DNA of 64,000 bases from an uncultured bacterium (GCA_963848965.1 CAWKFG010000001.1:544001-608000); one strand, 5' to 3'; shown: positions 6,569-64,000, counted from the first letter of the stretch. Notes: generated by a model from the letters alone, not told the origin. A program made the numbers and translations.

Positions 6569-7120
6569 TTATTTAAGAGCAGTTTCATTCTTATTTTCAG
6601 TATCAGTTTGAGTTCTTACATGAGAAGCAGGAATAGCTTGACCATGTTCACTATGAGTGGTTTTTCCATAATAGAAAGGCTCTTTGGCTCCAAAGGCTGC
6701 TCCTATAAGTGTTAGATTGAGCGAGCTGCTGGGTTCGATGAAGATTGTTTGGCCTTTATGATTACCTTTTTCTATGATCATAGCTACTGCTGTTTCTGTT
6801 TTTGCAGGCTTCTGCAATTCTTCTTGCACGTTTTTAACCCATAGCCAGTCTATAGTAACATAACTTGTAGCGGGAGGGAGATTGTAACAAGTACGAAGGT
6901 TATTATAGTGACCTACAATCGCAAGCTGTTTTCTTTCTTCTCCATCGGTTGTAGAAAAGACAGAAGAGCTAAAGTACGATGGATTTTTAGTTATAGCCCA
7001 GTTAAGGCAGAAAAGAGCACTTCTTTTTTTCTCAAAATCTTCTTGTGAGTTTGATTTTTCCATACATAATAAAGAGCTACCTATAATGATAAATGATAAA
7101 AGTGTAAAAAAATACTTCAT
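6569..7120 (-). CDS. Secreted hypothetical protein
   Basis: Signal peptide followed by MEK; AAGG-type RBS. Confidence 0.7.
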   Translation of the reverse strand: MKYFFTLLSFIIIGSSLLCMEKSNSQEDFEKKRSALFCLNWAITKNPSYFSSSVFSTTDGEERKQLAIVGHYNNLRTCYNLPPATSYVTIDWLWVKNVQEELQKPAKTETAVAMIIEKGNHKGQTIFIEPSSSLNLTLIGAAFGAKEPFYYGKTTHSEHGQAIPASHVRTQTDTENKNETALK

Positions 7121-7398
7121 GAACTACCTTTATGGTTCTAATAGTTTATTGATCGTACATAGTTGTATATCTATAGCATATATGCAAAGCCATAATTGTC
7201 AATAATGAATTTTTTTTGCAAGAGTAAAAGCCAGACCTATTACTAGGCTAGCAAAAAATAGAAAGACTCTGTCCTCCTAAAGAATCAATGCAATTAACAG
7301 GTTTAGAGGTATTTTTAGTTTTTATTAGTAAACATTTTTCAAAATGTTCTTCTGTTTGTATATTTCAATCTGATATTATATATAAAAAGGAGAAACAT

Positions 7399-7584
7399 AT
7401 GGAAAGAAAAAAAACTGTGCCCTACCAAGAGGTAGATTTAGAAGAGAAACTAGGCCAAAGTACAGTGCCGCATTCACATAGTAAAAATACAGGTGCTGTT
7501 ACTACAACCGCTGAAGATATTGAAGGTTCTGGGGGTGTTCTAGAAGCAGAAGCAGGTGCTGCAGGTATTCGTGAATCAGAATAG
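7399..7584 (+). CDS. Small acidic hypothetical protein (61 aa)
   Basis: AAGGAG RBS before ATG 7399; abuts the next gene. Confidence 0.6.
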   Translation: MERKKTVPYQEVDLEEKLGQSTVPHSHSKNTGAVTTTAEDIEGSGGVLEAEAGAAGIRESE

Positions 7585-7592
7585 GGGAAGAA

Positions 7593-9355: not shown

Positions 9356-9924
9356 GTTATAGCTCTTTGTTTGAGCCATTCTATAATTTCTTGTTTTCGC
9401 ATCTCCTGGGCCCATAAGAGAGCTTTGTACAAGCAAGCGCCGTTTTGTAAAAGAAGCTCTACAACTGGTAGATGATTATTTTGTATAGCATATAGTAAAG
9501 CACGATTATCATGTTCACGTGCATTGGCGCCATGAGCTAAAAGAAGAGATGCTATTTCTCTCTTTCCGTGTAAAGCGGCAGCCATAAGAGCACAGCTCAG
9601 AGCAGAGGAATCAGTATAAAAAGGAAGAAGTTTTTGTACCATGTCCTTATTTCCTTTATGAGTAGCTGCAATAAGGGGAGATTTATCGTTATCATACACC
9701 TTGTGTCCATTGTTAATGTAACTTTCAAGCATAGAAACGTTTCCTTGCATAATCGGAATCATAAGGTAAAAATCGCCATGAACGGTACGTACCGGCTCTG
9801 TTTCTTTAAAACAAAATTTCTTGTGCGATGATCCTAAAGAAAAATTGTTTTTTGGTCTTTTCATTGCTTGTAATGAGTGCTGGCTATAAAGAAGTGCTAT
9901 AACAATGACTCTATATAGTTTCAT
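9352..9924 (-). CDS. Secreted ankyrin-repeat protein
   Basis: Signal peptide then MKRPK; SPLIAA, ALMAAALHG and ALLYAIQNNH repeats. Confidence 0.85.
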   Translation of the reverse strand: MKLYRVIVIALLYSQHSLQAMKRPKNNFSLGSSHKKFCFKETEPVRTVHGDFYLMIPIMQGNVSMLESYINNGHKVYDNDKSPLIAATHKGNKDMVQKLLPFYTDSSALSCALMAAALHGKREIASLLLAHGANAREHDNRALLYAIQNNHLPVVELLLQNGACLYKALLWAQEMRKQEIIEWLKQRAIT

Positions 9925-10484: not shown

Positions 10485-11633
10485 ATGAAGAGACAATTAC
10501 TGCTATTTCTTCTTATAATAGGGGGAATAGCATACGGATCTGGTGAGCTTTTAACCGAACTTTCAAGCAAGGAACACTTATCAGCGCTTATAATAAAGCG
10601 TCGTGCATTGCTTGAAAAAATTAGAAGTGATATTGAAAGTATTACAACAAATTATGATCTTATAGAAACAAAGATAGCCTCTTTGCAACAGGGGCTTAAA
10701 CCACAAGAAGAAAAAGACTTACATGCTGAAATAAAGGAAATCTTTTATAGGCCTGTCGAGGATGATTTTATTATATGGTATACTCATGGAAAAGTTGTAA
10801 AGTTGAATCCTGTAATGCAGTGCCAACTGAGTGTTCTCTTTGAGAATATACAAGCTTGTGGATTCTGTTGCTATCAAAAAGACGAGCAATGCTTTGTTGT
10901 TGCAACTGAGCAAGCTCTTGAACTTCGCAAAGGACAAACAGTCGTATGGTCAAGTGGTAAAGATACGCGAGCTCAAGGTATTTATGCTCTCTATCCTCAT
11001 CCTCTAGATAAGGATCGTGTTATTACTCTCCATACTAATGGACATGTGAAATTATGGGATCTAAAGAAGCGTGATTTTATAATGGCTCTTATGAAGCAAT
11101 GTAACAAGATTAACCATATGTGTATCACAAAGAATAATCATCTTGTTATGGCAGAAGAGACAGCTCTTAAAGTGCGAACTCTTGCTCTTACTACGAAAAG
11201 CTATAAAATTGCGGTACCAGAAAAAATTACTGCCCTTTGTAAAGATCCAAGCAACAATGATCAGGTTGTTATAGCAGGTAAGGAGCTACAAATATGGAAT
11301 GTGGTTTCTAAAAACTGTGTGCGTAAACTTGAGTGTAATGAAAAAGTTTCTGCGCTCTGTGCTCTAAAAAAGAGTTCCTTGAGTATTAATAACTGTATTA
11401 TTGCAGGAACTGAGCAAGGGAATATTATGCTCTGGAATGATGATTCTACTAAAAGAGTATACTTTAAAGCACATGGTACTCCTATAACGCATCTTGTTGT
11501 CGATAAACACGGCCGAATTATTTCGGCAGCTTACGATAGAACTGTTTCTGTATGGGCGTGTGTTGCAAAAGATACATGGGAAAAAATAGGTACTTTTAAA
11601 TTAGATAAAACGATAGAGAACGAAACATTATAA
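10485..11633 (+). CDS. Secreted coiled-coil + WD40 protein
   Basis: Signal peptide; GHVKLWD, LQIWN, GNIMLWN, AH..DRTVSVW. Confidence 0.85.
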   Translation: MKRQLLLFLLIIGGIAYGSGELLTELSSKEHLSALIIKRRALLEKIRSDIESITTNYDLIETKIASLQQGLKPQEEKDLHAEIKEIFYRPVEDDFIIWYTHGKVVKLNPVMQCQLSVLFENIQACGFCCYQKDEQCFVVATEQALELRKGQTVVWSSGKDTRAQGIYALYPHPLDKDRVITLHTNGHVKLWDLKKRDFIMALMKQCNKINHMCITKNNHLVMAEETALKVRTLALTTKSYKIAVPEKITALCKDPSNNDQVVIAGKELQIWNVVSKNCVRKLECNEKVSALCALKKSSLSINNCIIAGTEQGNIMLWNDDSTKRVYFKAHGTPITHLVVDKHGRIISAAYDRTVSVWACVAKDTWEKIGTFKLDKTIENETL

Positions 11634-11646
11634 TAAGGAATTATGT

Positions 11647-13593
11647 ATGAATAAAGTATTGTTAGCGCTTGCTCTAGGAATTTCGGGAAGCGTATTATAT
11701 GCAGGTGGTCAAGAGAAACGATCAGCAGATGAACATCCTCAAGTATCGCCATTAAAAAAATCGCGTACGACGGAAGAAGATGCTTCTGATAGTATACTTG
11801 CACAATTAAGAGAAGAGCTTACACAGTTTAAAGCTTCAGATATTCAGGCTTCTCTAAAGGCACTTGAAGAAAGAAACGAAAAGAATAGAGAAGAGTTTAA
11901 TAAGCTTAAAGCACGAGCAGGATCAGATACGCCTGCTTTACCAGCGCCTCCTAAACGACCTGCTGCAAAAATAACAGCAGTGCCACAATTGACTGGTCCA
12001 AAACCAGCAGCAAAAGCAAGTGATAACTCAAAAGAAAAAGAGAGCTCTCTTAGAACATCTCAAGGTAATGATCACTCAGTTAAAAAATTTAGAGCAACTA
12101 CAGATATTACTGCAAAGCCAGCTACTGGAACTCAAGATGGTGGTGTTAGTAACCCTATGTCTGCAAAACCTGCAGCTTCTCCTGAGGCCCCAAGCATTAT
12201 TAGGACTAAACAGCCGCTTATTCCTAGTTTACCAAAAGCTCCTGAGCAGACTGGTGTACCAGCTCAACTACCAATGCCTATAGTTGCTAAAGCTCCAGAG
12301 CAAACACATCTTTCTGCTCCAGTATTGCCTAAGGATTCAGAGCTTATAAGTGTACCTGCGCTTGCGCAAGCACCTCTAACAGCTAAGGCTCAAGAGATTG
12401 TAAATCTACCAGTACCAGCAGTTGCTAAACCTGCAGAAAGTGCACAATCAGAGATAGCAAAGACTACGAGAGTACAAGATTTGCTTGATGGCGGAGCTGC
12501 CGTGTCTATACCACATACTCTAAGCTTAGATAGTGGACTTTTTTCTACAAAAGAAGAGTCATTAACACCGCGTAAATTAAGTTTGTTACAAAGATTGAAT
12601 ACAATAAAAAGCCAAACAGTACAACGTCCTGCACAAAGCTCTATTTCTTGTATAATGTATTCACCTCTTACTAAAGAGTTGCTTGTAGGATGCCTTGATT
12701 GCAGTATACGAAAATACTCACAGCTTTCGCCATTATCAGGAAATAAAATTGGTGAGCATGATACTTCAGTAAAGTGTATGATTGTAGATCCTGTATCCCA
12801 AAAGTATCTTATTTCAGGTTCGTTCGACGGAGCTATAAAGGTATGGGATATTGCAGGGCAGCGATGTGTAGCATCATGGTTTGGTCATAACCGTGCTCTT
12901 CTTGCTTTCTTTATTAATCCCGAGAACCCCAATATTCTTATTTCTACTTCCGAGGATGGAACTCTGAAATTATGGGATTTAGGAAGCATTCGTCAAGCAG
13001 GAGAATTAAAGGGTGAATGTATTGTAGACAAATTTATATGTTCTCATGAGCTTACATTTAGTGAGCCTGTTACAGCAGTGACCTTTATACCAAGTGAGCC
13101 AACTGTTGCTTTCATTGGTAATGGTACTGAAATAGTGCTCTATGATTTAAGTAATGCAACCAAAGCTTATTCTTGGGATGATAATGTATTACTTAGTGCG
13201 CCTATAGCAGCGCTTTGTGGACATCCAGAAAATAGTGATTTGATAATTCTTGGGACACGAAATGGTGCGCTCTTTATATGGGATATTACAAAACCAAAAG
13301 AATCGCGCATTGTAGCCCAATTGAAAGCACCTGCATCTGTTAATATCAGCTCTTTAACAAAACTATCTATAGATTCTAAACAGCTTGTTTTACAAGCGAG
13401 TGATACTATTGCTCTTTGGAATCTTACAAATGGACGATTTATCACAAGTGTAAGAGTATCTGGGACAATTGCTAGTTTTGTGCTCGATCAAACAAAGATT
13501 GTTATAGCAACAGTTGCTGGACAACTTTTTACAGCAGATGTTATTCGTAATCAAGGAGAAATTACTGCATTTGGGCCGCTTACGGCCCTTTAA
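11647..13593 (+). CDS. Secreted protein with NLS-like motif, coiled coil, Pro/Ala-rich linker and WD40 propeller
   Basis: SGSFDGAIKVWD, GH..SEDGTLKLWD; AKP/AKAPEQT repeats. Confidence 0.85.
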   Translation: MNKVLLALALGISGSVLYAGGQEKRSADEHPQVSPLKKSRTTEEDASDSILAQLREELTQFKASDIQASLKALEERNEKNREEFNKLKARAGSDTPALPAPPKRPAAKITAVPQLTGPKPAAKASDNSKEKESSLRTSQGNDHSVKKFRATTDITAKPATGTQDGGVSNPMSAKPAASPEAPSIIRTKQPLIPSLPKAPEQTGVPAQLPMPIVAKAPEQTHLSAPVLPKDSELISVPALAQAPLTAKAQEIVNLPVPAVAKPAESAQSEIAKTTRVQDLLDGGAAVSIPHTLSLDSGLFSTKEESLTPRKLSLLQRLNTIKSQTVQRPAQSSISCIMYSPLTKELLVGCLDCSIRKYSQLSPLSGNKIGEHDTSVKCMIVDPVSQKYLISGSFDGAIKVWDIAGQRCVASWFGHNRALLAFFINPENPNILISTSEDGTLKLWDLGSIRQAGELKGECIVDKFICSHELTFSEPVTAVTFIPSEPTVAFIGNGTEIVLYDLSNATKAYSWDDNVLLSAPIAALCGHPENSDLIILGTRNGALFIWDITKPKESRIVAQLKAPASVNISSLTKLSIDSKQLVLQASDTIALWNLTNGRFITSVRVSGTIASFVLDQTKIVIATVAGQLFTADVIRNQGEITAFGPLTAL

Positions 13594-13619
13594 AAAGTGT
13601 TAACTTATTTTAATGAAGA

Positions 13620-14960
13620 GTGTATACAATGAGAACTTTATTTTACTTACTTTCTCTTGTGTTGTGCGTACAGACTGTACTCCACTGTGGTGGAGATAGT
13701 CCTAAGCGCAAACGAAATGATGATTCTTCCGAGAGTGCTTCAAGCCAAAAGAAGAAGAGATATTCGCAAGAAGAGCTGATACATATTATGAGCTTAATGC
13801 AAAAGTATCGTGAGCAGCGATTGAAAATACAGTCTCTTATAAAAGATCTTCAAAAAGGAACTGAAGAGATAGAGCAGAATATTGCATCTTTATATAAAGA
13901 ACGCGAGCAGGTTGAATCAGCAGATTCTTTCAATAGATCTGTAGAGTCTGATGAAGAAAGCGATGCTTCAACTGTAGGACGATCATCTCCTCTTTTAGCT
14001 GATTTTGATGCGATGGAAGAGATTGCTCAAGAAAAGAGAACTATGCCAGAATTGTGGCTCTTTCGGTATGATGCGCGCAGCAAGCAAGGATTTGCTTGTT
14101 ATGAAGGTAAATCTATTCGCGTATGGGATCTATCTTCGCGGCGTAGCATAGCAACTATTGCCGTTCCTGATGAAGGAGATATTTTGGATTTACGTATTCA
14201 TCCTTATAAACCACAGCATTGTATCATTGCAACGAAAGACTCAATACAAGTGCTCGGGCCAGCAGGATGCTTATGGAAAAGCAAAGTTGATGTAGGAAAG
14301 GACACTCGTGTTCTTTATATTAATCCTCATAATCAGCGGCAGTTATTTACTGGCCATGGTAATGGGATTGTACGCTTGTGGGACATTGAAACAGGAAAGC
14401 GTTTAAAAGAGTTTACTATGTTTGATACTTCCCGCGAAAATAGTAATGAAAATGCTATTTTTTCACTTTGTACTACTCAAGACAAAACGCTGATCGCTGC
14501 TACGTATAAAGGTAAAGTGAAGCTTAAAACAGAGGTCTCATCTATACCATTTCAATCTTTTCCTGCAGATGAGGAAAGTTTGCTTTATACTCATCCAATT
14601 GATAGTGGTAAGATTATTGTGGCTGGAAACGGTATAAGAATACGTAGTATACGAGGTAAAAATTGGCCACAAGCATTTAAAACTGCTGATGATGTAACTG
14701 CTGTTTGTACAATTCATAATTCATCTATGTATATTATAGCAGGTTTAAAAAATGGATCTATAGAGCTGTGGCGAGAGCTTGATGCTCATAATTACGCATT
14801 GATAACTACTTTTAGCAAATGCCATACAGGACCTATTATTTTCTTAGGGTTTGACGAAGAAAAGAACCAGCTTATTTCTGCTGGAGAGGATGGGTTAATT
14901 AAAGTGTGGGATTTAAACAAAGAGCGTACGTATGCCCATTGTGTAGATTCGCTTATATAA
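13620..14960 (+). CDS. Secreted NLS-like + coiled-coil + WD40 protein
   Basis: PKRKR..KKKR; IRVWD, GIVRLWD, SAGEDGLIKVWD; start may be ATG 13629. Confidence 0.85.
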   Translation: MYTMRTLFYLLSLVLCVQTVLHCGGDSPKRKRNDDSSESASSQKKKRYSQEELIHIMSLMQKYREQRLKIQSLIKDLQKGTEEIEQNIASLYKEREQVESADSFNRSVESDEESDASTVGRSSPLLADFDAMEEIAQEKRTMPELWLFRYDARSKQGFACYEGKSIRVWDLSSRRSIATIAVPDEGDILDLRIHPYKPQHCIIATKDSIQVLGPAGCLWKSKVDVGKDTRVLYINPHNQRQLFTGHGNGIVRLWDIETGKRLKEFTMFDTSRENSNENAIFSLCTTQDKTLIAATYKGKVKLKTEVSSIPFQSFPADEESLLYTHPIDSGKIIVAGNGIRIRSIRGKNWPQAFKTADDVTAVCTIHNSSMYIIAGLKNGSIELWRELDAHNYALITTFSKCHTGPIIFLGFDEEKNQLISAGEDGLIKVWDLNKERTYAHCVDSLI

Positions 14961-15260: not shown

Positions 15261-16520
15261 ATGAGCTATAAAGTGATTGGAATGATCTGTTTTATGTGGT
15301 TGGGTTTATCTCTCTATGGAATGGAAAAGGAGCCTGTCTTAAAAGCAGCAATGCTTGAAGATGATTTTGGAGTTCTTAACGAACTTTTTGCTAAAATAGC
15401 ATTGGTTGAAAATGCCATAGAGCATTTTCTTAGTCAGGGTATTACGTCTAACATCTCTCATCGGAATTCTTTAGCTGTAGATTCAGCATATTTAAGTCCC
15501 CAGTGCAATTATATAATAGCTCAATCTGCAGGACCCGTGGTAGAAGTGTTTGATATAAGAAAATTCCCGGTAGTTGTGCCCTGTATTACGTGCCATGAAG
15601 GTGCAGCTAAATCTATAGCTATAAGCCAAGATGATAAATATATGTTAAAAGGATATCAAACTGGTATAGCAGAACTCAGCTTCCTCGAAAATTCTACTGG
15701 TAAACCATATGAGCTTTTTGGGCATACGGATGCTATTACTTCTGTAGCATTCAGTAAAGATAGGAGTTATGTGCTAACAGGATCACGGGATGGAACTGCA
15801 CGCATATGGGATATAAAAGCCCTTGAGGCTGTCAAATCATATGTTCTTACAGGTCATACAAAAGGTATTACTTCCGTAGCCACAAGCCCATCCAGCGACA
15901 AAGTGCTAACAGGATCATGGGATAAAACTGCACGAATATGGGATATAAGTAATCCTGAGTCTGTTACGTCATATGAACTTAAGGGCCATAAAGAAGATAT
16001 ACAGTGGGTACAATTTAGTCCAACGGGCACCTATGCTATAACAAGAGATAAAACAGAAGCATATTTATGGAATATAAGTGATCTCAAATCTATTACATCA
16101 CATCGTATAGGTGATAGAAGAGCTGTAAGCGCTATAGTATTTAGCCCAGATGAAAAATATCTCTTGATAGGATATTTTGAAGGTGCTGCACAAATGCTCG
16201 ATATACCTACTTTAAAGGGAACTGCTGTGTCATATACTCTTAAGGGTTTTACTAATCTTTGTTCTGGAGCATTTAGTCCAACAGGATTGCATATGCTGCT
16301 TGGATCGGCTGATGGTAGTGTAAAGCTTTGTACTATAACTGGCACTGACATTGTTGAAAAAACTAAGCTGGATGGGCATAATGGTTGGGTTTCGTCAGTA
16401 GTATGGAGCGTAAACGGAAGATATATTTTAACAGCATCGTGGGATGGAACGCTAGTACTACGAGATATGACTAGTCTTTGCACAGCTACAGAGCTTGCTT
16501 CAAAACGTAAGCAGATTTAG
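15261..16520 (+). CDS. Secreted WD40-repeat protein
   Basis: Canonical GHTxxITSVAxS..LTGSxDxTARIWD repeats; signal peptide then MEK. Confidence 0.9.
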   Translation: MSYKVIGMICFMWLGLSLYGMEKEPVLKAAMLEDDFGVLNELFAKIALVENAIEHFLSQGITSNISHRNSLAVDSAYLSPQCNYIIAQSAGPVVEVFDIRKFPVVVPCITCHEGAAKSIAISQDDKYMLKGYQTGIAELSFLENSTGKPYELFGHTDAITSVAFSKDRSYVLTGSRDGTARIWDIKALEAVKSYVLTGHTKGITSVATSPSSDKVLTGSWDKTARIWDISNPESVTSYELKGHKEDIQWVQFSPTGTYAITRDKTEAYLWNISDLKSITSHRIGDRRAVSAIVFSPDEKYLLIGYFEGAAQMLDIPTLKGTAVSYTLKGFTNLCSGAFSPTGLHMLLGSADGSVKLCTITGTDIVEKTKLDGHNGWVSSVVWSVNGRYILTASWDGTLVLRDMTSLCTATELASKRKQI

Positions 16521-18292: not shown

Positions 18293-19138
18293 ATGAATAG
18301 AAGAATATTACTATTTTTTAGTATATGTTTTAGTGGAATTTTAGTCGGAATGCACAATCTTGATAAGACTCAGCCTTGCTACCAGTATAGATTGGCAAAA
18401 CAAGCAGATGTACCAGCTTTACTTGACTTGATTAATACTCAAGCAATCCGTGATAATACAAAGATTGTTATTTTGCCAAAAGTATTTAGAGAAGGTGCTT
18501 TGCGATCGGCGATAGAAAAAAAGCGCATTTTTATTGCTTTAGATCAAGACCGTATTATTGGTTATAAAAAATTGTTTATAATGATGTGCGATCATGAAAA
18601 AAGCGATATCCTTAACGATGAAATTCGTTGCATTAATAATGAACAGAATTGTGTATTTGCAGGTTATATAGATAATGATACTATCTTTGTTCCCTGTGTA
18701 CCGCGCTTAGCTCATAATTGTTATAGCATTTGTATATACAATGGTGGTGATTTTACGTTGCCATCGTATCGTGGCAAGGGCATCAATCAACAGCTTACAA
18801 AAATGGCGTTGCTTTCTCTTGTTGCTGATGTGAAAGACTATATGCATAATCAAGGTGTAAATACTATAACTATGGTTTATGGAGTTACTCAAGCAAATGC
18901 TGGAATATATCCAGGAGCACCATCAGACCGTACTGTAAGTATTAGTAAAGCCTTTAAAGTGTTTATTCACATGGTGGAGGGTTACTTCAAACCGATTACT
19001 TTGCAGCATCAACGATATCGTGCATTTATGCCAACTTTTGATCCAGACTCTCAAGTATTACAGCCGCTGTCAGATGACCAATCCATTCCCGGCTTTGGTT
19101 GCGTATTAACATATATAGTAAGGAGAGAGCATGAATAA
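18293..19138 (+). CDS. Secreted GNAT-fold acetyltransferase-like protein
   Basis: YRLAKQADVPALLDLIN strand-helix start; TLPSYRGKGI acetyl-CoA motif A; signal peptide. Confidence 0.6.
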   Translation: MNRRILLFFSICFSGILVGMHNLDKTQPCYQYRLAKQADVPALLDLINTQAIRDNTKIVILPKVFREGALRSAIEKKRIFIALDQDRIIGYKKLFIMMCDHEKSDILNDEIRCINNEQNCVFAGYIDNDTIFVPCVPRLAHNCYSICIYNGGDFTLPSYRGKGINQQLTKMALLSLVADVKDYMHNQGVNTITMVYGVTQANAGIYPGAPSDRTVSISKAFKVFIHMVEGYFKPITLQHQRYRAFMPTFDPDSQVLQPLSDDQSIPGFGCVLTYIVRREHE

Positions 19139-50909: not shown

Positions 50910-51217
50910 TTTCTTTCTCCACAATTATTATCTCACATCTATAATTATTTATATTAGTAATTATAATACATAAATTAAAATAAAAGCAATAGTTATAGTG
51001 TTATCAACCTTTTCGATCAGCTCAATGAGAAACAGCAGCCAAACAAATCCCATGTCATATTTCTATACCTTACCAATCATAGCTATAGAGCAAGCTGCTC
51101 TGAAGTAGATATTAGTACCAATTATTATGATTTCCTTGAAATAGGGATAGTTATATAGTATTATGTCCTTATAAGAGAGAAATAATTTATAACTTTTATC
51201 CCCTTACAAAGGAAAAA

Positions 51218-52654: not shown

Positions 52655-54754
52655 TTAATGAAAGAACTTAATACCAAGATTATCTAAAAATAGGGGGTTA
52701 ATTATCTGTATGTCTGGATACCTATCTTTAAAGGCTTCCTTAACCTGCTCAAGTTTTTTGGCAGCTTCAAGGAATTCGCTGCTATATTTACCTAAGAGGA
52801 GAAGCATGTTTTTAAGATCGCCTTGAGCTGCTGCTACTTCCAGCACTAGTACTATTTTCTTAATAGAGCCAATCTTGGCTCCTTGAGCTAGAAGTAATTT
52901 TGCTACCTCAAAATTACTCTTTAATAAAGCATAAAAGAGTGCGGTATTGCCTTCTTTATCCTTGAGGTTTATACCACTGCCACAGGTATTAATAAATGTA
53001 CCAGGCTGAGTTTTGTTTCTTAGATAAATTAATGCTTTAACACAGTCATCTCTACCACATACTATAGCATACATCAATGCTGTTTTTCCCCATTGATCCT
53101 GTGCATTAATGTACCATTGTGGCATAGTAGTCAAACTGAGTACTCCAAGGGTATACCCTCGTATACAGCATCTATGAAGTGCCGTTTGCTCTGTCTGTTC
53201 ATCGCGTAAATGAGGATGTTCTGCTGTTATTGCATGTACACAGTGCTCATGTAAGTTAGTAAACTCATTCACATTAATGCTATTGTTTTCAATACAGGTT
53301 GGTAGAATACGTGCTACTTCTCTTTGCAAAACATCACAAAGAAAGCCATTGCTGTTGTGCCTTATCTCGGTCTCGGCTTCAAAAGTCTTTATGTTTGCTC
53401 CAAGGTTGTTCTCTATAAGTTTGACTATGTTCATATCTATTGGAGCTAGTGCGATATATATTTTTTGGTTTAAGATTAAACTGAGTATATCAAGTCTTCC
53501 ATGCTTAAAGATACTGTTAATACACGCACTATCTAAGCTTATATGGCTAAATGTGTGGACTAAGGCTCTGATTATCATTTCAATAGTTTCTAGTGATTTA
53601 TTAGTAGTAATAGCAAAGCTTAGGAGCACTTGGTTGTAATTAATAACCTGAATAGTTGGCGGTGCTCCGAATGAGAGAAACTTTCTCACTAACTGAGGCT
53701 TGTCAAACTTTACTGCATTAACAAGCCCATTGGCAAGCAGCTGTATTCTATCGGGAGAACCCATAGGATAATAGTCTAAAAATCTATTTATGATGTCTTC
53801 ATAATCTTGCTCTATAGCATATCCTATGATAGACATATTTCTACTATTATTACTATCATTATAGTCAATCACAAAACTAGGGTACTCTAGTAAGAGCTCA
53901 GCTACTTTTTTATGCTTATTTTCTAAAGCTATCATTAAGAGGCTCTTACCATCAGGTCCCTTTAGAGTGCAATCAGCTCCTGCATATAATAAAAAGCTTA
54001 CCTTTTCTACCTCACCGGTTATTACTGTACAAAGAAGGTACTCGTTTAAAATCTTTTGACCAGATTCGCCGTATTGTTGTAAAATAGCTCTAATAGCACT
54101 ACCATTACAAGCTTCTATCGCATCGCCTATAATACGTTGTAGTGGGTGTTTTTCTGGGCCCTGAGTTTCTTTTTTAGGTTGTAGTCGTTTATAATCAAGC
54201 AATAAGTTAACTACATCTTCACGACCGTGTTCTGCAGCTATTTCTACGGCACTCTTACCATTTTCTTTAAAATTCTGGTCAGCACCTAAATCAAGCAACT
54301 GACGAATTTTAGCTACTGTCATTTTCCGTCTAATTCCACTAACCAGTAATGAATTAATTAAAAAAGGATTTCGCGCTAGCAGCTCTTTAAATAAAGTAAG
54401 ATTTGAAAGCTCGAATGCCCTTTCTAGTCTTGTTAAATCATTAATCCCAGGAGCAACCGTAGCCCACAATGTTTCAAATGCCTTTTTTTGCCCTTCTGCC
54501 AATGGCGCAGGAGTTTCCTCAGAAGATTGACTATCTTCTGAGTCTTCATCATCAGACAAGTGGGGTATTACAAGACTATCTTCAGAGCTTGAAGCTTGTT
54601 CATCAGAGGAGTTATTATGTTCAGAATCGCTCTCAGAAGCCATTTCATCATGCAATCTTTTTATACCGTGAGCATCCAGATTTTTTTCCATGGCACTACT
54701 ACCATAAGAAATACTTATAATGCCCAAGAATAGTATTACATACTTTGTTACCAC
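52655..54754 (-). CDS. Large secreted ankyrin-repeat protein with an acidic Ser/Glu/Asp tract
   Basis: Signal then MEK; GKSAVEIAAEHG, QTALHR, GKTALMYA, GNTALFYA. Confidence 0.85.
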   Translation of the reverse strand: MVTKYVILFLGIISISYGSSAMEKNLDAHGIKRLHDEMASESDSEHNNSSDEQASSSEDSLVIPHLSDDEDSEDSQSSEETPAPLAEGQKKAFETLWATVAPGINDLTRLERAFELSNLTLFKELLARNPFLINSLLVSGIRRKMTVAKIRQLLDLGADQNFKENGKSAVEIAAEHGREDVVNLLLDYKRLQPKKETQGPEKHPLQRIIGDAIEACNGSAIRAILQQYGESGQKILNEYLLCTVITGEVEKVSFLLYAGADCTLKGPDGKSLLMIALENKHKKVAELLLEYPSFVIDYNDSNNSRNMSIIGYAIEQDYEDIINRFLDYYPMGSPDRIQLLANGLVNAVKFDKPQLVRKFLSFGAPPTIQVINYNQVLLSFAITTNKSLETIEMIIRALVHTFSHISLDSACINSIFKHGRLDILSLILNQKIYIALAPIDMNIVKLIENNLGANIKTFEAETEIRHNSNGFLCDVLQREVARILPTCIENNSINVNEFTNLHEHCVHAITAEHPHLRDEQTEQTALHRCCIRGYTLGVLSLTTMPQWYINAQDQWGKTALMYAIVCGRDDCVKALIYLRNKTQPGTFINTCGSGINLKDKEGNTALFYALLKSNFEVAKLLLAQGAKIGSIKKIVLVLEVAAAQGDLKNMLLLLGKYSSEFLEAAKKLEQVKEAFKDRYPDIQIINPLFLDNLGIKFFH

Positions 54755-55209: not shown

Positions 55210-56050
55210 ATGAAAAGGATACTAGTTGTAACACTCGTAGGATGGTCTATCTCTATTCTAGGTATGGAGCCTAAAACTTATTTAGAACTTTTACCTCAAG
55301 ATCTGAGGCAAGAGCTTGCTAAATTCACTACCAATTTAGAAAATGTTTTTACTATTAAGAAGTTACAAGAAAAACTAGGTGAAATAGAACAAAGAGTGGT
55401 GCATCTTAAGGGTTTATCTTCTTTAGTACAAGCTCTTAATACCTTACAACAACAATTAGAGCTTATAAAAAATGCAAAGTATGAAGATGCATTAGCTTTA
55501 ATAAAAGAATTATCTCAAAATAAAGGATTAGAATCCTTTTTTAATAATCCTGATTTTATTAGAATTATTATACACACGCTATGGCCTAAAGCACTTAGGG
55601 AAGGAAAGTACAACATTCAAGAAGGAAATATAGCACAAGAGCTTAATACACCAGGAGCTTTAGAATACTCAAAGCAATTACAATTTATTAAAGCAGCACA
55701 TAAAGGAGACATAAAAACAGTGCAAGAATTTTTAAGTAAAGGTATTAATGTTAATGCTAAAGCTATCCTTGGCACCACTGCTTTAATGTCTGCTGGATAT
55801 GGTAGGAAAGATATAGTTCAAATGCTTCTGGCGCATAAAGCAGATGTTAATGCTCAAGATCACAGTGGGCAGACTGCATTAATATATGCTGCATTGCGTG
55901 GAGATAAAAATATAGTAGAAGTGCTTATAGTGCAAGGGTGCAGATGTTAATGCTAAAGATAATGATGGTCATACTGCTTTAACGTGGGCAGCTACTTATG
56001 AACATAAAGATATAGTAGCATTGCTTAAAAAGCACGGGTCTAAAGAGTAA
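55210..56050 (+). pseudogene. F-box-like/ankyrin family member with a +1 frameshift near 55937
   Basis: After CAAGGGTGCAG the shifted frame gives [37 protein letters not shown]. Confidence 0.85.
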
Positions 56051-56339: not shown

Positions 56340-56879
56340 ATGATATACAAGTACTCTCTGACCCTTGCTCTTCTTGGTGCTTTTGCTTCCAGCTATAGCA
56401 TGGAACACATGAACCAACACTTAGAAAATCTAAAAAGGCTTGATCCTGAAGGAGTATATGCGTTTATGCACACTCTTATTTTATATTATAGTAATGATAT
56501 AGAAGCTCTCTATCAATCACAAAACATTGAAACCTCGTATCTTAAGTCATTACCATTAGATCTTAACCGAGAACTTATGTGCTACAGAATTCTTGCTATG
56601 TTAGAGGATTTCGATAGGTTCCGCATGCTAGACAACAGTGATATCGTAGCATACCTTACAACAGCACTTACTAGTATCAATCCTCGCATACCATTTCAAC
56701 TTCTTGGCCTACAAAATAATGCTTCTGCAGCAGAAATAGCGACAGCATTTAAGCAACTTGCTCGCCAATGGCACCCGGATAAACATACAAGAAGTACCGA
56801 AAAAGAAAAAGAGCTCGCAATTGCTCGTTTTAAACTTTATAATGCTTGTAGAGAGTTTTGCTTATTAAGAGCACAATAA
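56340..56879 (+). CDS. Secreted F-box-like + J-domain protein
   Basis: Signal then MEH; SYLKSLPLDLNREL; LLGL..ASAAEIATAFKQLARQWHPDK. Confidence 0.85.
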   Translation: MIYKYSLTLALLGAFASSYSMEHMNQHLENLKRLDPEGVYAFMHTLILYYSNDIEALYQSQNIETSYLKSLPLDLNRELMCYRILAMLEDFDRFRMLDNSDIVAYLTTALTSINPRIPFQLLGLQNNASAAEIATAFKQLARQWHPDKHTRSTEKEKELAIARFKLYNACREFCLLRAQ

Positions 56880-57155: not shown

Positions 57156-58093
57156 ATGATAATGAAAAAGATACTAGTAGCTGGAGTAATAATAGGATGG
57201 TCTGTTTTTACCGTAAGTATGCAGCAAAAGACGTATTTAGATATTTTACCACAAGAGCTTAGACAAGAACTTGTTAAATTTACTACTCATTTAAAAGGTA
57301 TACATACCTTGTATGAGTTACCAGAAAAACTAAGAGAAATACAACAAAGGGCGGCACAGCTTAAGAGTTTCTCTTCATTAGTACAAGCTATCAATAACCT
57401 GCGGCAGCAATTAGACCTTATTAAGACTGCAAACTATGATAATGCTTTAGCTGCGCTACAAGATTTATCCAAGGATAAAGAGTTAGAATTTCTTTTTAAC
57501 AATCTCGATTTTAATCGTATTCTTATAAGAGAATTATCTATCAAAGATACTTCTAAAGAACTAGAAAATATAGCACAAGAGCTTAATACTCCAGGAGCTT
57601 TAGAATACTTAAGGCAAAAACGATTTATTGCTGCTGCAACAAAAGGAGATATAAAAGCTGTAAAAGACTTTTTAGATAAAGGTATTAATGTTAATGCTCA
57701 AGATGTTAGTGACTATACTGCTTTAATAATAGCTGCAGCTCATGGAGATAAAGATATAGTAAAGATGCTACTTGCATCCGGTGCTGATGTTAATGCTCAT
57801 GATAAGTATGGTCTTACTTCTTTACATTGGGCTGCCGAAAAAGGGCATAAAGAAATAGTAGAGATGCTTCTTAAGGCAGGTGCAGATGTTAATGCTCGAG
57901 ATATGTATGGCCGTACAGCTTTAATGATTGCTGCAAATGATGAAAGACACAAAATATAGCAGAAATGCTTATCAATGCAGGAGCAGATGTTAATGCTCAA
58001 AGTAATGATGGTCAGACTGCTTTAATGTTTGCTACTGAAAAGAATTATAAAGATATAGTAGAACTACTTAAGCGTCATGGCGCACGGAAATAA
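57156..58093 (+). pseudogene. F-box-like/ankyrin family member with a -1 frameshift near 57952
   Basis: The shifted frame continues NIAEMLINAGADVNAQSNDGQTALMFATEKNYKDIVELLKRHGARK*. Confidence 0.85.
57447..57698. repeat. 252-bp perfect inverted repeat, arm 2
   Basis: Matches the reverse complement of 50391..50642. Confidence 0.9.
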
Positions 58094-59446: not shown

Positions 59447-59857
59447 GATTTTCCTTATCGAGAATTGAGATCTTACGTGCTGTTTAATAAGCCTATAGCT
59501 TTATCATTTCTACAAATGGGCTGTATCTTTACTTAAAAAGCTAGCACCGTACTTTTGAAGAAGCTCTACAACGTCTTTGTGCCTTCCTCAGGATGCATTA
59601 ATAAACATACTGCCACTGTCAAAACTACTTTATTCATATCTAAAAATACCTTTGATTAACTATTTACAGTTTTATATTATATAACAAATAGGAAATATGC
59701 GCAAATCGTTCTTTTATGCCCTAAAATTGGTAATCACTCTTGTCTTTTCATTCCTAGATTTAGTTATTCTTAGGCAGCATAATTATAGTATACTTGAAAT
59801 ATAAAGTTAATATATGATATTTTATAATAAAATAATAAAAGTTAAAGGAAAATTATT

Positions 59858-60304
59858 ATGAAGACATCTTTTATTAAAGCTTGTATACTGCTGACAACCT
59901 TTTCTTCCGTATACGGCATGGAAAAAATTAAGGAAAAACTATTTCCTAAAAGCAAAGAGAAAAGAGAACGGCCGGCAGCAGAACTTCCTCTAGAAGAGCA
60001 AATTCAGAACGAATTTACCAAAAGAGCTGCAGTTGCACATGGACAAGGAAGAAATATGAATCAAGACGACCTTATGCTTATTTTCTTTCCCTTGCGCCCA
60101 AGTCTTGCACAGGAACAGCGGGTAACAGTTGAAGTAGTCGATACTATTATAGGACAAATTAAAAAGCATTTTCCAGATTGGTCACTTGATAAAATACATG
60201 ATCTCTTAATACAGTATCTTCCAACACGCGAGTTTACCTATTTTAATAATTTTCTTTCGCGCAGGATTAAAAAATACAAAGCTAGCAAGATCAATGGTGC
60301 GTAA
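59858..60304 (+). CDS. Secreted hypothetical protein, paralog of the next gene
   Basis: Signal then MEK; DDLMLIFFPLRPS and PTREFTYFN align with the neighbour. Confidence 0.75.
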   Translation: MKTSFIKACILLTTFSSVYGMEKIKEKLFPKSKEKRERPAAELPLEEQIQNEFTKRAAVAHGQGRNMNQDDLMLIFFPLRPSLAQEQRVTVEVVDTIIGQIKKHFPDWSLDKIHDLLIQYLPTREFTYFNNFLSRRIKKYKASKINGA

Positions 60305-60320
60305 TAGGAGGCCTAAAACA

Positions 60321-60827
60321 ATGACTAGAGCTCTATCTTTCATCATTACAAGTAACTTCTTGCTACTCATCCTTTGTCACTCTTATACATCTACAATGGA
60401 ACCTATGAAAGAAGAGCCATCAACTTCGCGTTTATACGCTCTGCCTCCAGAGCTCAGAGCACAGACACTTCTTACTACTATAATGAAAGAACTTCAATCA
60501 AAAATGGGCCGTAAAATGTTAATGAGAGCACATAAAGCACTTGCTCCTCATGAAGAGCCACAACTAGAGTTAGATGAAGACGATATTCAATTTATCATCG
60601 CAAAATTGCAACCCTCTTTTTCTCATAAGGATTTTTCTACTTCGCGTACCATTGGCACGGTACTTTCTAGACTTGCTCCTTATTATAAAGGATCCCTCAA
60701 AGAACTTGGCCTCAAGATTAAGGAAGGGTTTCCTGAGAAAGAATACCCATTCTTTAACCAAGCTCTTCAAGAATGGTTGAAGGAACAAGCGGCAAAAGAG
60801 ACACAATCTTCTCAAAGTAGATTATAA
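60321..60827 (+). CDS. Secreted protein with an F-box-like motif
   Basis: AGGAGG RBS; signal then MEP; LYALPPELRAQTL; DDIQFIIAKLQPS, PEKEYPFFN. Confidence 0.75.
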   Translation: MTRALSFIITSNFLLLILCHSYTSTMEPMKEEPSTSRLYALPPELRAQTLLTTIMKELQSKMGRKMLMRAHKALAPHEEPQLELDEDDIQFIIAKLQPSFSHKDFSTSRTIGTVLSRLAPYYKGSLKELGLKIKEGFPEKEYPFFNQALQEWLKEQAAKETQSSQSRL

Positions 60828-60924: not shown

Positions 60925-61314
60925 ATGAAAATATTATTTTTTCTATCTATATTATTACTTAATGTAATTTACGCTCAGGCTATGGATACAGCAAAAGCGG
61001 TTAATTCTCAAAAGCCACTTACTATTCTCCATATTATTGATAATACAAAAACTACTGGTGGTGAGAATGCGGTAACCATTGAACATAAGACTGCAGCATC
61101 CTACTGGGGGCCTATGATATATGATTGCCCCATTCAAGACATAGTAGATATCCCTCTTTTTAAACGTGATATTGTAAGGGTCTATGGCCCAGGGGGAGTT
61201 TCTCTTCTTACCTATTGCCCTACAGGCAAATTCTCTCGTGTAAATCTTATCATTGGCAAAAGTAAAAAAAGTACTAAGATTGTTTTTGTACAAAACAAAG
61301 AGGACCTTCATTAA
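60925..61314 (+). CDS. Secreted hypothetical beta-rich protein
   Basis: Signal ending AQA, then MDT. Confidence 0.7.
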   Translation: MKILFFLSILLLNVIYAQAMDTAKAVNSQKPLTILHIIDNTKTTGGENAVTIEHKTAASYWGPMIYDCPIQDIVDIPLFKRDIVRVYGPGGVSLLTYCPTGKFSRVNLIIGKSKKSTKIVFVQNKEDLH

Positions 61315-62207
61315 GTATATTTTTTAAGAAGTTCTATTATATCTTTAAATCCAGACATTTTGGCAGGCGTTAAAGCAGTATTGCCTTTATTGTCTTTAGC
61401 ATTAACATCAGCACCATGAACTATAAGCATCTCTACTATAGCTTTATTTCCCCCAGATGCAGCTACTATTAAAGCAGTATTGCCATACTCATCTTGAGCA
61501 TTACCATCTGCACCAGATGCAAGTAGCATCTTTACTATATCTTTATATCCATTAGATGCAGCTTTCATTAAAGCAGTATCACCAGTTATGTCTTGAGCAT
61601 TAACATTTGTTCTATGAGCTAGAAGTAGTTCTACTATGTCTTTATAACCAAAAACTACTGCTCTCATTAAAGCTGTTTGATTAGTATTACTATTTACTTT
61701 AGCATTAACATTTATTCCTTTATTGAGAAAATCTTCAACTGCTTTAACATCTGCTTGGCCAACAGCCTTTAAAAATAGCAACTCTGTTGGACGACGTTGT
61801 AACCAGAGTGCAGCACCTGCTGTTTTAAGATCCTTTGCAATATCATCCTGCTTTTTAATATCATATCTTGTGTGGTAATCGTTAATCTTGATTACTTTAT
61901 ATTTCTTCTGCAGCTCATCTAATAGAGATTCAGTAAAAGGAATATCTTCAAAGAGGGTAGCATATTCTTGCTTTTGTGCGAGCTCTTGTATCTTATGTAA
62001 TGCCTCTGTGTATTCTAAGTCTTTTATAAGTACATGAATTACAAGAGGATTCAGTAAATTCTTAAGATCTTGCGGCAATAAACTTAAATAACTCGTCTCT
62101 TGCTTGCTTTTCTTATGCTCTCTTTCTTCTGCCATCTCAGACTCATGCTTCATACCTATAGCATTAAAACAGAAAGCTATGAGTAGAATATATAATACTT
62201 TAAACAT
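61311..62207 (-). CDS. F-box-like/ankyrin family member
   Basis: SYLSLLPQDLKNLL, LKTAGAALWL, about 5 ankyrin repeats. Confidence 0.9.
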   Translation of the reverse strand: MFKVLYILLIAFCFNAIGMKHESEMAEEREHKKSKQETSYLSLLPQDLKNLLNPLVIHVLIKDLEYTEALHKIQELAQKQEYATLFEDIPFTESLLDELQKKYKVIKINDYHTRYDIKKQDDIAKDLKTAGAALWLQRRPTELLFLKAVGQADVKAVEDFLNKGINVNAKVNSNTNQTALMRAVVFGYKDIVELLLAHRTNVNAQDITGDTALMKAASNGYKDIVKMLLASGADGNAQDEYGNTALIVAASGGNKAIVEMLIVHGADVNAKDNKGNTALTPAKMSGFKDIIELLKKYT

Positions 62208-62359
62208 GGGTACCCTTCTTTTCTCTTTATCTGCATGCTAAATATATCATAAAAGAAATTTATTTTCAATTCTATCAAAATATATTATTTTTGTTACACT
62301 AGTATAAAGAACTATATTCGTAATTAAAATATCCCTTAGAGACCGGAAAAGGCTTAAAA

Positions 62360-64000
62360 ATGAAAAAAATACTTTATTTAGTACTTATAGCATTTTCTAG
62401 TACTACTTATAGTATGGAGAAAGAAAAGGGCTCCTCAATTGAGCTATCAGTTGCCCAACTACCAGCTCCTTCTTTAAATGAGCAGGAAAAACATACCTTT
62501 GCTCAAATTCTTTTTAATAGATACAGAGTTACTGAAGCCTTTGCTGGCCTTATTGCTCAAAATCACTACCTTAACAAAACGCACACCGACCTCTGGGTTG
62601 ATGAAATTATCTCTCGCTGCTCTACTCTAGAAAGGCTAGAAAATGAATCTTCAGAGAGAGTAAAAGCTCTCTTAAAGCTTATTGACACTATATGCCTTAC
62701 TCACAGCAAAGACTACTGCTATCAAACAATAGCACCCCTTTTACAGATCTACCATTTTAATACTCATCAATGGGATACTTGTTTACACACTCTTATTGCC
62801 TATTATAAGGAAATACGCACACTTGCTGCAGATCTAAAACAAGAGTTTGCTACAAGTGATAGAAAAAAAAGAAAATTCTTAAGTAACCTCAAACGCGCTG
62901 TCGATATTCTCAATGAAATAGCAATAAAAGATCCCTACGCCGCTCTTGAAAAGGCTTTTTCTGAGCACCACCTTAATATAGGAAACAAAGAAAACCTGCA
63001 TGTCGTACTTGATACAGTAACAATACAACAACCTCATTTGAAACGAGATAAATCTGTTTTCGATCAATTTGACTCGTATTATGAAGGTAGAAAAAATATT
63101 TCTGCGACAGAAAAGGATATCCTTTATTACATTAGACTATGCCGCCTTAGAGAGATGCGAGCCTCAATAGAAACACATCTTAATAATCTTATAAGTCAAG
63201 TAGAACCATTTCAATCCTTATTAAGTACCATAGATACACTATCTCCTTACCAATGCTACGTACGTTCTCCTCTTCCGCTTCTTAATAATTCTCTTTACAA
63301 AGCATATACAAACGATAAAACTCCTCTTTATCCTCTTCGTATACTCATGGACCTTTCAGAAGCTGAAAAGGCCACATTCGCTCAAACAATAAGAGATCAT
63401 CTTGTTATTGCCCGCAACTTCTGCTATCTCAACACTGTCTATAAAGCAATTGAAAATGCATGGTCTCAATTGCCTCTCTATGCCCTTGAACAAAAATTAA
63501 AACAGCTTCTCCTTACTCTACAAACAGAACAAGCTGCTTCTAAACTTTCCGCAATTCCTCGCTCTACAGAGAGCTTAGAACAAGAATGTAAAGCGCTTAC
63601 TCTCTTTATCGCACAAACAAGAAAAAATATATGGCGCTACGTAAAAGAGCGCCTTTGTAAATCATTGTGGCAAGAAATTCAAGAAGCCGCTACCTGTCTT
63701 TTATCTATACCTCCTCAAACTATGTTTTTACTAGAATGTTATAAACTACTTGAACAACCACTCAGAGGATACAATCATGAAGCTCATGCTCACGCTCTTG
63801 TAAAAGAGTGGCAAGAGCTTTTTAAAGACAAAGTAGATCTTATCATTATTCTAGATTATACCGTTTGTCCCTATATAACTCACGTATATACTACACTTTC
63901 AGGCCATGAATTTCCTCTTACTTTATGTCCTCCACAAGAAAAGCTTAGCTCAACCATCTCTTCGGTAAAAAGAAAGATGGAAAGTTACATACAAGTATTT
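62360..64000 (+). CDS. Large secreted helical protein, 3' end outside the window (not in the ORF track)
   Basis: ATG 62360, MKKILYLVLIAFSSTTYS-MEKEK, open for 547 codons to the window edge by manual translation. Confidence 0.85.
   Translation, partial: MKKILYLVLIAFSSTTYSMEKEKGSSIELSVAQLPAPSLNEQEKHTFAQILFNRYRVTEAFAGLIAQNHYLNKTHTDLWVDEIISRCSTLERLENESSERVKALLKLIDTICLTHSKDYCYQTIAPLLQIYHFNTHQWDTCLHTLIAYYKEIRTLAADLKQEFATSDRKKRKFLSNLKRAVDILNEIAIKDPYAALEKAFSEHHLNIGNKENLHVVLDTVTIQQPHLKRDKSVFDQFDSYYEGRKNISATEKDILYYIRLCRLREMRASIETHLNNLISQVEPFQSLLSTIDTLSPYQCYVRSPLPLLNNSLYKAYTNDKTPLYPLRILMDLSEAEKATFAQTIRDHLVIARNFCYLNTVYKAIENAWSQLPLYALEQKLKQLLLTLQTEQAASKLSAIPRSTESLEQECKALTLFIAQTRKNIWRYVKERLCKSLWQEIQEAATCLLSIPPQTMFLLECYKLLEQPLRGYNHEAHAHALVKEWQELFKDKVDLIIILDYTVCPYITHVYTTLSGHEFPLTLCPPQEKLSSTISSVKRKMESYIQVF

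Follow-up and report, generated by a model that had tools for sequence, protein, structure and literature searches.

Leaders in the window end directly before a methionine

We analyzed a 64,000-nucleotide stretch of DNA from an uncultured bacterium, a presumed parasite of protists (GCA_963848965.1, CAWKFG010000001.1:544001-608000; G000:C1:544001-608000), hereafter the window, in which many open reading frames (ORFs) encode a Sec-type leader peptide that is followed directly by a methionine. Positions are counted from the first letter of the window. The source genome, G000, comprises 5 contigs and 1.73-Mb with 37% G+C, and its placement within the phylum Dependentiae is a working assumption. 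Inspection of the N-termini of all window ORFs revealed 25 with a leader of 17-25 amino acids (aa) and Met immediately after it (Table 1). These leaders feature a basic n-region, a hydrophobic core and a small residue at their last position (-1). With the Met taken as +1, the first residue of the predicted mature protein, the +1/+2 pairs are ME in 15 cases, MQ in 4, MK in 3 and MD, MH and MR in one each. An earlier note on this DNA had reported the same total, a 20/25 share of ME, MQ and MD (15 + 4 + 1) and nine example junctions, all of which our recount reproduced. It had also divided the 25 into 12 ankyrin and 13 non-ankyrin ORFs, for which BLAST labels instead give 14 and 11; the latter consist of one WD40-like ORF, one DnaJ-domain ORF and nine without a Pfam family. 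Two other candidates were dropped: at 29443 the sequence LAS↓MVF sits within the hydrophobic core, and at 32955 VYN↓MRL has a non-small residue at -1. ORF 38762-39523 was skipped by the detectors described below because its hydrophobic core contains an Arg.

Table 1. Leader-Met junctions and contrasting exported proteins of the window (↓, predicted cut).
Feature	Position	Strand	ORF and label	Junction or remark
Leader + Met-Glu	7058..7120	-	6569-7120, no Pfam	MKYFFTLLSFIIIGSSLLC↓MEK
Leader + Met-Lys	9859..9924	-	9352-9924, ankyrin-like (BLAST)	...HSLQA↓MKR
Leader + Met-Glu	15261..15326	+	15261-16520, WD40-like (BLAST)	...LSLYG↓MEK
Leader + Met-His	18293..18355	+	18293-19138, no Pfam	...GILVG↓MHN
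Leader + Met-Glu	22284..22340	+	22284-22874, no Pfam	...ASVYA↓MEP
Leader + Met-Arg	23724..23789	+	23724-24392, no Pfam	...TELLA↓MRG
Leader + Met-Glu	25993..26061	+	25993-27513, no Pfam	Met22, Glu23
Leader + Met-Lys	34938..34997	-	34602-35033, F-box/ankyrin paralogue	MKKVWIILMLSWSTYTVS↓MKS
Leader + Met-Gln	36756..36815	-	35784-36830, F-box/ankyrin paralogue	...SLPLSA↓MQL
Leader + Met-Gln	37338..37394	+	37338-38363, F-box/ankyrin paralogue	...SVSTFS↓MQP
Leader + Met-Gln	38762..38818	+	38762-39523, ankyrin	MKKLLIIVLGRSVFTIG↓MQP; read by eye
Leader + Met-Glu	41421..41480	+	41421-42248, F-box/ankyrin paralogue	...SISLVG↓MEP
Leader + Met-Glu	43831..43890	-	42904-43890, F-box/ankyrin paralogue	...CINIYS↓MED; 20-aa insertion after ME
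Leader + Met-Glu	46052..46114	-	44669-46114, F-box/ankyrin paralogue	...SITTLT↓MEQ
Leader + Met-Glu	49102..49164	-	48139-49200, F-box/ankyrin paralogue	MIKKRLLALLLGWSISILG↓MEP
Leader + Met-Glu	50853..50924	-	49902-50924, F-box/ankyrin paralogue	...YVSTLG↓MEQ
Leader + Met-Glu	54686..54754	-	52655-54754, ankyrin-like, 699 aa	...SYGSSA↓MEK
Leader + Met-Glu	55210..55269	+	55210-55950, F-box/ankyrin paralogue	...SISILG↓MEP
Leader + Met-Glu	56340..56405	+	56340-56879, DnaJ-domain	...FASSYS↓MEH
Leader + Met-Gln	57156..57224	+	57156-57959, F-box/ankyrin paralogue	...SVFTVS↓MQQ
Leader + Met-Glu	59858..59923	+	59858-60304, no Pfam	ends VYG↓MEK
Leader + Met-Glu	60294..60401	+	60294-60827, no Pfam	...CHSYTST↓MEP
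Leader + Met-Asp	60925..60987	+	60925-61314, no Pfam	...VIYAQA↓MDT
Leader + Met-Lys	62148..62207	-	61311-62207, ankyrin-like	...CFNAIG↓MKH
Leader + Met-Glu	62360..62419	+	from 62360, 757 aa in genome; no Pfam match in first 546 aa	...SSTTYS↓MEK
Ile in place of family Met	3680..4666	-	F-box/ankyrin paralogue	...ITTLG↓IKP
Contrast, no Met	4862..5650	+	exported DUF2935 protein	ordinary site ...GSIFA↓QNA
Contrast, no Met	10485..14960	+	three tandem WD40-like paralogues	ends ...YG↓SG, ...YA↓GG, ...HC↓GG

The junction is a genome-wide feature

We examined 1472 non-overlapping ORFs of at least 80 aa, called across the genome, using a relaxed detector that allows charge in the c-region and scores small↓Met-[E/Q/D/K], a strict detector that returned 259 ORFs, and a loose set of 320 cases gathered without a -3/-1 requirement. 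The relaxed detector identified carriers in 238/1472 ORFs, or about one in six. Across the 1472 ORFs, Met frequency peaks at 4.6-5.7% at positions 19-22 and falls to ~1.5% deeper in, and Glu follows Met in 177/823 cases (21.5%) at positions 15-35 as opposed to 4.1% elsewhere. In loosely leader-like ORFs, Met directly precedes the first charged residue that follows the hydrophobic stretch in 182/757, relative to 69 for the runner-up Ala and a background Met frequency of 1.7%. At 413 AXA-like sites that have a residue X and then a polar one next in line, Met takes the X position 186 times, Leu 39 times and Ile 24 times, an excess of Met with a binomial p about 1e-209, which kinship among paralogues inflates. 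In the strict set (n=259), the +2 residue is E in 127, Q in 36, K in 25, S in 14 and N, D and Y in 7 each, with the other 36 cases spread over eleven residues. The resulting junction consensus, [L/T/I]-[Y/F/L]-[A/G/S]↓M-[E/Q/K]-[K/P/Q]-[E/D/A], reaches background level by +5.

Within the loose set, -1 is A/S/G in 229/320 cases and T/C in 33 more, -3 is L/S/I/A/V/T/C in 291/320, and Y/F/L are preferred at -2, while Met occupies +1 by definition. Lys is the second residue of the leader in 87/259, and leader length has a mode of 18-21 aa; both features are independent of the detectors, which in part impose the basic n-region and the uncharged core. The predicted signal peptidase I pattern thus stands exactly before the Met, and we infer that cleavage would occur at that bond. 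The gene for the corresponding peptidase, LepB, is present in one copy (G000:C1:323677-324552). A lipoprotein signal for signal peptidase II was rejected because there is no lipobox and +1 is Met rather than Cys; Cys occupies -1 in only 16/320. No twin-arginine (Tat) motif was seen by eye in the listed leaders, for which no dedicated scan was made.

The central 50-kb bin of the window has 15 carriers among 43 ORFs, compared with 16% genome-wide, and the window is an effector-rich part of a genome-wide phenomenon. Carriers are clustered, with 114/238 having a neighboring carrier as opposed to ~30% expected. Their mature parts fall into 82 groups that lack BLASTP similarity to one another, 66 of which are singletons, which indicates that one duplicated family cannot account for the pattern, as the earlier note had argued. 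The C-terminal composition of the 238 carriers showed nothing notable. Chance frames in AT-rich upstream DNA were ruled out as a source of the leaders by the ribosome-binding signal described below, the -3/-1 pattern, and conserved leaders with in-frame indels. Ankyrin-like ORFs identified by BLAST number about 165/1472 in the genome, and in several large ones the mature part opens with Met-Lys-Arg and continues with Lys/Arg-rich runs that resemble nuclear localization signals.

Sequence statistics place the translation start at the leader ATG

We scanned positions -20..-4 upstream of candidate starts for a Shine-Dalgarno (SD)-like motif, using 73 single-candidate cytoplasmic starts as controls. 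The motif precedes 54% of the 259 leader starts and 45% of the controls. Before the inner Mets it occurs in only 2% of cases, and before other internal Mets in 10%; the comparison is biased because the detectors exclude charged codons just 5' of the Met. The SD peak is visible as a G fraction of 0.48 at -9/-8 of the leader start, whereas the fraction is at most 0.20 throughout -14 to -5 of the inner Met. Leader starts share the upstream profile of other genes, with TTGACA and TATAAT enriched, and a k-mer search upstream for an effector-specific promoter returned only generic -35/-10 and AT-rich words. For instance, in the region 59820-59960, the leader ATG of ORF 59858-60304 is preceded by TATAAT and AAAGGAAAA, and nothing comparable lies 5' of the inner ATG.

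The residues that follow the Met also differ from those at real starts: Glu and Gln together make up 63% of residues after the inner Met, whereas Glu occupies position 2 in 4/73 cytoplasmic starts and Glu or Gln in 6/73 (8%). The GAA:GAG ratio after the Met (84:43) equals that of the genome (19416:9314), which shows that the preference is for the amino acid and not for a nucleotide word and rules out a nucleotide-level ATG-NAR signal. Furthermore, paralogue leaders align as protein, with indels in frame. Taken together, these sequence statistics show that the leader is translated and that initiation occurs at the leader ATG, which implies for annotation that the second ATG of carrier genes is not the start.

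Carriers are concentrated among eukaryote-like and orphan exported proteins

To compare classes of exported protein, we considered the 679 ORFs that lie whole within 20-kb pieces of C1:1-400,000 and C4:1-400,000, of which 329 are leader-like; labels came from Pfam for 306 and from BLAST to repeat proteins only for 23. The eukaryote-like class comprised ankyrin, WD40, C2H2 zinc finger, LRR, RING, UCH, DnaJ, DSP phosphatase and Macro proteins. Carriers make up 57/81 of this class with the relaxed detector and 48/81 with the strict detector, 30/145 and 24/145 of the exported proteins without a Pfam family, and 1/103 with either detector of those in any other Pfam family. For the strict counts, 48/81 vs 1/103 gives a Fisher p = 4e-21, a value that exaggerates the significance, since paralogues are related to one another. 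The 102 non-carriers include BamA, a POTRA protein, three DegP-like proteases, S41, S49, M23 and M48 peptidases, two solute-binding proteins, GH1, GH3, GH18, an esterase, PBPs and seven GT1 glycosyltransferases, and their leaders end ordinarily (e.g., ...LYA↓KN, ...ARA↓GW, ...YVFS↓QF). Genome-wide, small↓Met was observed in 125/149 leader-bearing ankyrin-like ORFs, 15/16 zinc-finger ORFs, 4/4 LRR ORFs and 10/18 WD40 ORFs. The rule is therefore specific to a class, namely the eukaryote-like and orphan proteins that are presumed effectors, and the contrast of 57/81 with 1/103 supports the use of the motif as an effector predictor, which the earlier note had proposed.

Among the window proteins outside the rule, the three tandem WD40-like paralogues have Lys/Arg-rich, nuclear-localization-like stretches after their leaders. 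The two RING-IBR (RBR E3-ligase-like) proteins (28282-29370 and 29443-30387, both on the - strand) have a hydrophobic N-terminus plus a second hydrophobic stretch.

The Met is conserved at the leader boundary

Alignment of an F-box/ankyrin family of 14 members shows the +1 Met in 13/14 (one has Ile) despite varying leaders; ahead of the F-box, no columns other than the start Met and the +1 Met are nearly invariant. Inserted segments, which reach about 20 aa, are located after ME, which indicates that the Met moves with the end of the leader and not with the domain. Smaller families behave alike, and a leader-bearing GT1 family is without the Met. Cutting against the rule, Ile replaces Met in two F-box/ankyrin paralogues. 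For the orphan ORF 25993-27513, a homologue search returned two relatives in the database and none further, which share 73% and 35% identity; across these three sequences only, a thin basis, the flanks diverge but Met22 and Glu23 do not change. The best explanation is that purifying selection holds the Met at the leader boundary of one cargo class, which consists of eukaryote-like repeat proteins and of lineage-specific proteins that evolve fast, the presumed host-directed effectors.

The rule is restricted to certain lineages

We counted carriers, defined as small↓Met-[E/Q/K/D], per leader-like ORF in relatives, all of the same order, using samples that span 40-80 kb except where another size is stated. 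Within family f1, the counts were 91/364 for G000 (800 kb), 14/37 for G002, 9/31 for G003, 10/54 for G004, 4/38 for G005 and 3/15 for G010, where one carrier is DnaN, a false match; the 80-kb samples of G001, G009 and G011 gave 0/38, 1/35 and 1/66. Elsewhere, the counts were 8/49 for G024 (f10; mostly Met-Asp), 5/49 and 4/53 for G028 and G046 (f11), 4/41 for G058 (f14), 2/49 for G018 (f4), 1/47 for G059 (f5) and 0/25 for G017 (f3), with one or two genomes, or none, behind each of f2, f10, f11 and f12. These counts show a rule that is confined to certain lineages and unevenly distributed even among members of one family. It recurs in several genera: it is present in G002, G003 and G004, weaker in G024 and G028, and absent or rare in the samples of G059, G017, G001 and G011, where the absences are weak because small samples may miss effector islands.

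In 480 kb of G003, small↓Met was found in 39/50 leader-bearing ankyrin-like ORFs, with +2 residues of E in 16, Q in 6 and N and D in 2 each of the 39 and the non-E/Q residues spread over 12 residues. In G059, ankyrin junctions at loci L059-L062 and L099-L118 read ...SMYA↓AQE and ...YA↓FQE, with one ...YA↓MQE, and many other leaders have Q-E/D or D/E directly after them. These patterns suggest a family of junction motifs, each specific to a lineage, in place of a single rule.

Interpretation of the Met-first N-terminus

The earlier note had named three findings that would speak against its interpretation, namely a predicted cut elsewhere, a +1 Met that is equally common in exported housekeeping proteins, and a Met that is the true initiator. 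We observed none of these: Met occupies +1 of an AXA-like site, exported housekeeping proteins almost never carry it, and the SD-like signal lies before the leader start. The interpretation given in the earlier note is partly supported overall: the motif holds up as an effector predictor, and the functional readings are hypotheses.

We tentatively favor the reading, at a probability of about 0.38, that the Met-first N-terminus is a post-cleavage address tag, which would separate outbound cargo from periplasmic residents. In such a mechanism, signal peptidase I would cut the Sec leader so that the mature protein begins with Met, and the exposed Met-Glu/Gln N-terminus would be read in the periplasm, after cleavage, as a short linear tag. 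The tag would sort cargo due to exit the cell from periplasmic and outer-membrane residents, and the exit path would be a type II/secretin apparatus, the sole type of secretion system reported for the phylum. A tag evolving together with a bacterial machine would be expected to show the lineage-restricted distribution that the rule has. A more specific version, in which Met-Glu/Gln is a linear, transferable export signal read by the clustered secretin/type II-like apparatus, appears unlikely; if true, it would be the first short sequence tag known for such secretion, and the effectors of part of the phylum could be predicted with a one-line rule.

Candidate machinery is present. G000 encodes two type II secretion system (T2SS)-E ATPases and three secretin ORFs, the latter of 1153, 818 and 796 aa in one cluster (G000:C4:764000-775000). 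Three clustered secretins also occur in G003 and G010, two in G024, G028, G046 and G059, and two plus a shorter one elsewhere in G017, G018 and G058. In the accessible parts of the published reports, the T2SS is the sole secretion system reported for Babela (PMC4378268), and gspD is present in two copies in every TM6 genome studied (PMC4776705). We found no exported Met-processing enzyme, as both M24 peptidases are leaderless, and no match to the PF05096 glutaminyl cyclase in this 88.7% complete genome; animal-type cyclase and exported acetyltransferases were not part of the search.

Several observations weigh against an address tag. We found no receptor that would read the tag, and secretin copy number does not track the rule, being 2-3 in each of the 11 genomes. 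Known type II secretion signals are generally regarded as a matter of protein conformation and not of linear sequence. Several eukaryote-like exported proteins have a leader without the Met. These comprise a UCH deubiquitinase, a dual-specificity phosphatase, the two RING-IBR proteins and the WD40 subfamily at 10485-14960, all of which would be expected to work inside the host, together with a Macro-domain protein and three DnaJ proteins. There are also relatives with exported ankyrin proteins yet without the rule; for example, in 480 kb of G059, small↓Met was found in 8/39 leader-bearing ankyrin-like ORFs, 6 of them being an inner "S↓MYA", and the G001, G009 and G011 samples add to this pattern. 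Moreover, the placement of cleavage rests on -3/-1 statistics, 33/238 carriers contain a further transmembrane-like segment, and the paralogues are kin and not independent, so that the p-values are too extreme.

Ranked just behind the address tag, and nearly as likely though itself doubtful, is a role on the host side, in which the same cleavage yields a Met-first N-terminus that mimics a native host protein after delivery. N-termini of the NatB type are Met-Glu/Gln/Asp/Asn, from which Met aminopeptidase does not remove the Met, and an acidic second residue would also never be exposed as a destabilizing N-terminal residue. E, Q, D and N together account for 177/259 (68%) of +2 residues vs 17/73 (23%) at position 2 of cytoplasmic proteins, the G024 and G028 samples are mostly Met-Asp/Glu/Gln, and the F-box, ankyrin, zinc-finger, LRR and RING carriers need the host cytosol or nucleus. 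However, Asp and Asn are rare at +2 whereas Lys is common, and in G003 the Met is retained although +2 varies (E/Q in 22/39; NatB-type in 26/39), which weakens the NatB-specific version that the earlier note had put forward. Small +1 residues would be stabilizing as well, such that evasion of N-degrons alone needs no Met, and N-terminal acetyltransferases work chiefly on nascent chains. Exported host-directed enzymes such as the UCH, dual-specificity phosphatase and RING-IBR proteins lack the Met, and mature effectors of G059 open with A-Q-E or D/E, though N-degron pathways are general in eukaryotes.

Improbable, by comparison, is that the Met is a historical by-product, in which leaders were grafted at the start codons of once cytosolic, partly host-derived genes and the resulting N-terminal module was then multiplied through duplication and shuffling, which would leave the Met with little function today. 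This history would fit the presence of the Met in acquired or expanded families and its absence from ancestral exported proteins, the Met-Glu or Met-Asn starts of a few leaderless ankyrin proteins, the one-base change to Ile in two paralogues, and the clustering of carriers. Against it, a functionless single-codon residue should decay like its flanks, yet the Met is kept in 125/149 ankyrin ORFs, is present in 82 unrelated groups and in relatives of other genera, and stays at the leader end when insertions part it from the domain. The +2 to +4 preferences are also unlike the real starts of this genome.

We consider it very improbable that the inner ATG also initiates a leaderless cytoplasmic isoform or is the sole true start, with the leader an artifact of annotation. 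The codon is always ATG and is followed by A-rich codons, and about half of genuine starts have no SD-like motif, so that its absence is not decisive. Nonetheless, the motif precedes the Met in 2% of cases vs 45-54% at real starts, by a test biased as noted above, Glu is second in just 4/73 starts, and the upstream peptide has the full n/h/c anatomy and -3/-1 site with promoter-like and SD elements before it. Finally, a general, phylum-wide +1 rule of signal peptidase I, comparable to the Bacteroidetes Q-rule and unconnected to effectors, would account for the wide lead of Met over all other residues at candidate +1 sites across the genome, but this explanation is contradicted by the cross-tabulation of classes (1/103 among non-eukaryote-like Pfam exported proteins) and by the absence of the motif from samples of several relatives, which leaves it extremely improbable.

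Relation to known systems and significance

To our knowledge, Met at +1 is rare in known signal peptide sets. The carriers share with classical Sec/signal peptidase I peptides the basic n-region, the hydrophobic core, the -3/-1 pattern and the 18-21 aa mode, and in G000 itself +1 Met is rare among housekeeping exported proteins. The nearest described phenomenon is the Bacteroidetes Q-rule, by which signal peptidase I substrates carry a Gln at +1 that is cyclized to pyroglutamate (PMC5837995, PMC10653852). Both are lineage-restricted and feature a strongly conserved residue right after the signal peptidase I site. However, as far as those sources extend, the Q-rule covers most signal peptidase I substrates and has a glutaminyl cyclase, whereas the residue here is Met, marks one cargo class and is patchy within a family. 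Furthermore, Gln occupies 19 of the 413 candidate +1 sites in G000 vs 186 for Met, which sets the pattern apart from the Q-rule.

In lipoprotein sorting (the E. coli +2 rule and the Bacteroidetes lipoprotein export signal), the first mature residues set the destination after leader removal, a property that the proposed tag would share, but those rules involve signal peptidase II and a lipidated Cys at +1. PEXEL processing involves an aspartic protease in the endoplasmic reticulum (ER), and the motif lies some tens of residues past the signal. In the accessible part of the report, this Plasmodium host-targeting motif is RxLxE/Q/D behind an ER signal (PMC2408878). The Met-first junction would resemble PEXEL in outline, with a short motif by a secretory signal that marks only host-directed proteins and with processing that yields a new N-terminus with E/Q/D as its second residue, but PEXEL is eukaryotic, and the junction here has Met at +1 and no homology to it. 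A PEXEL-like Arg..Leu pattern is not conserved in the +2 to +26 composition of the carriers, where preferences were seen only at +2 to +4.

We found no published description of a Met-first rule in the accessible literature on the phylum. In the parts available, the Babela (PMC4378268) and Chromulinavorax (PMC6561590) papers mention neither methionine nor, respectively, a cleavage site or cleavage, the TM6 comparative paper does not use the word signal, and the Q-rule paper does not mention methionine, TM6 or Dependentiae.

We know of no means by which Dependentiae distinguish host-directed cargo from periplasmic residents. The accessible text on Chromulinavorax states that up to about 44% of Dependentiae proteins are exported (PMC6561590). 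A four-residue signature that is present in 70% of the eukaryote-like exported proteins and missing from 99% of the housekeeping ones provides a testable handle on this sorting and flags about 100 unannotated G000 proteins as effector candidates. According to the available parts of the reports, cultured members of the phylum that infect amoebae and flagellates include Babela and Chromulinavorax (PMC4378268, PMC6561590), which, together with the rule in the relative G003 (39/50), makes the question open to experiment.

Other features of the window

Three genes for AAA_14 + DUF4143 ATPases (40082-41329, 46321-47637 and 51218-52531, all +) are interspersed among the F-box/ankyrin paralogues, and the first two have nearly identical N-terminal sequence; these genes could serve to anchor recombination or could belong to a mobile unit by which the effector genes are spread. 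The overlapping ORFs 38762-39523 and 39513-39959 (+) appear to be one split ankyrin gene with the leader↓MQP on the first piece, and the split is probably due to a frameshift or recent decay. Glucose-6-phosphate dehydrogenase (16495-17979) and an M20 peptidase (19131-20414), both on the + strand and both cytosolic enzymes as a rule, have hydrophobic N-terminal anchors. A Fic-domain protein (30625-31752, +) and a PIN-domain protein (31969-32373, -) are encoded next to each other, and neither has a leader.

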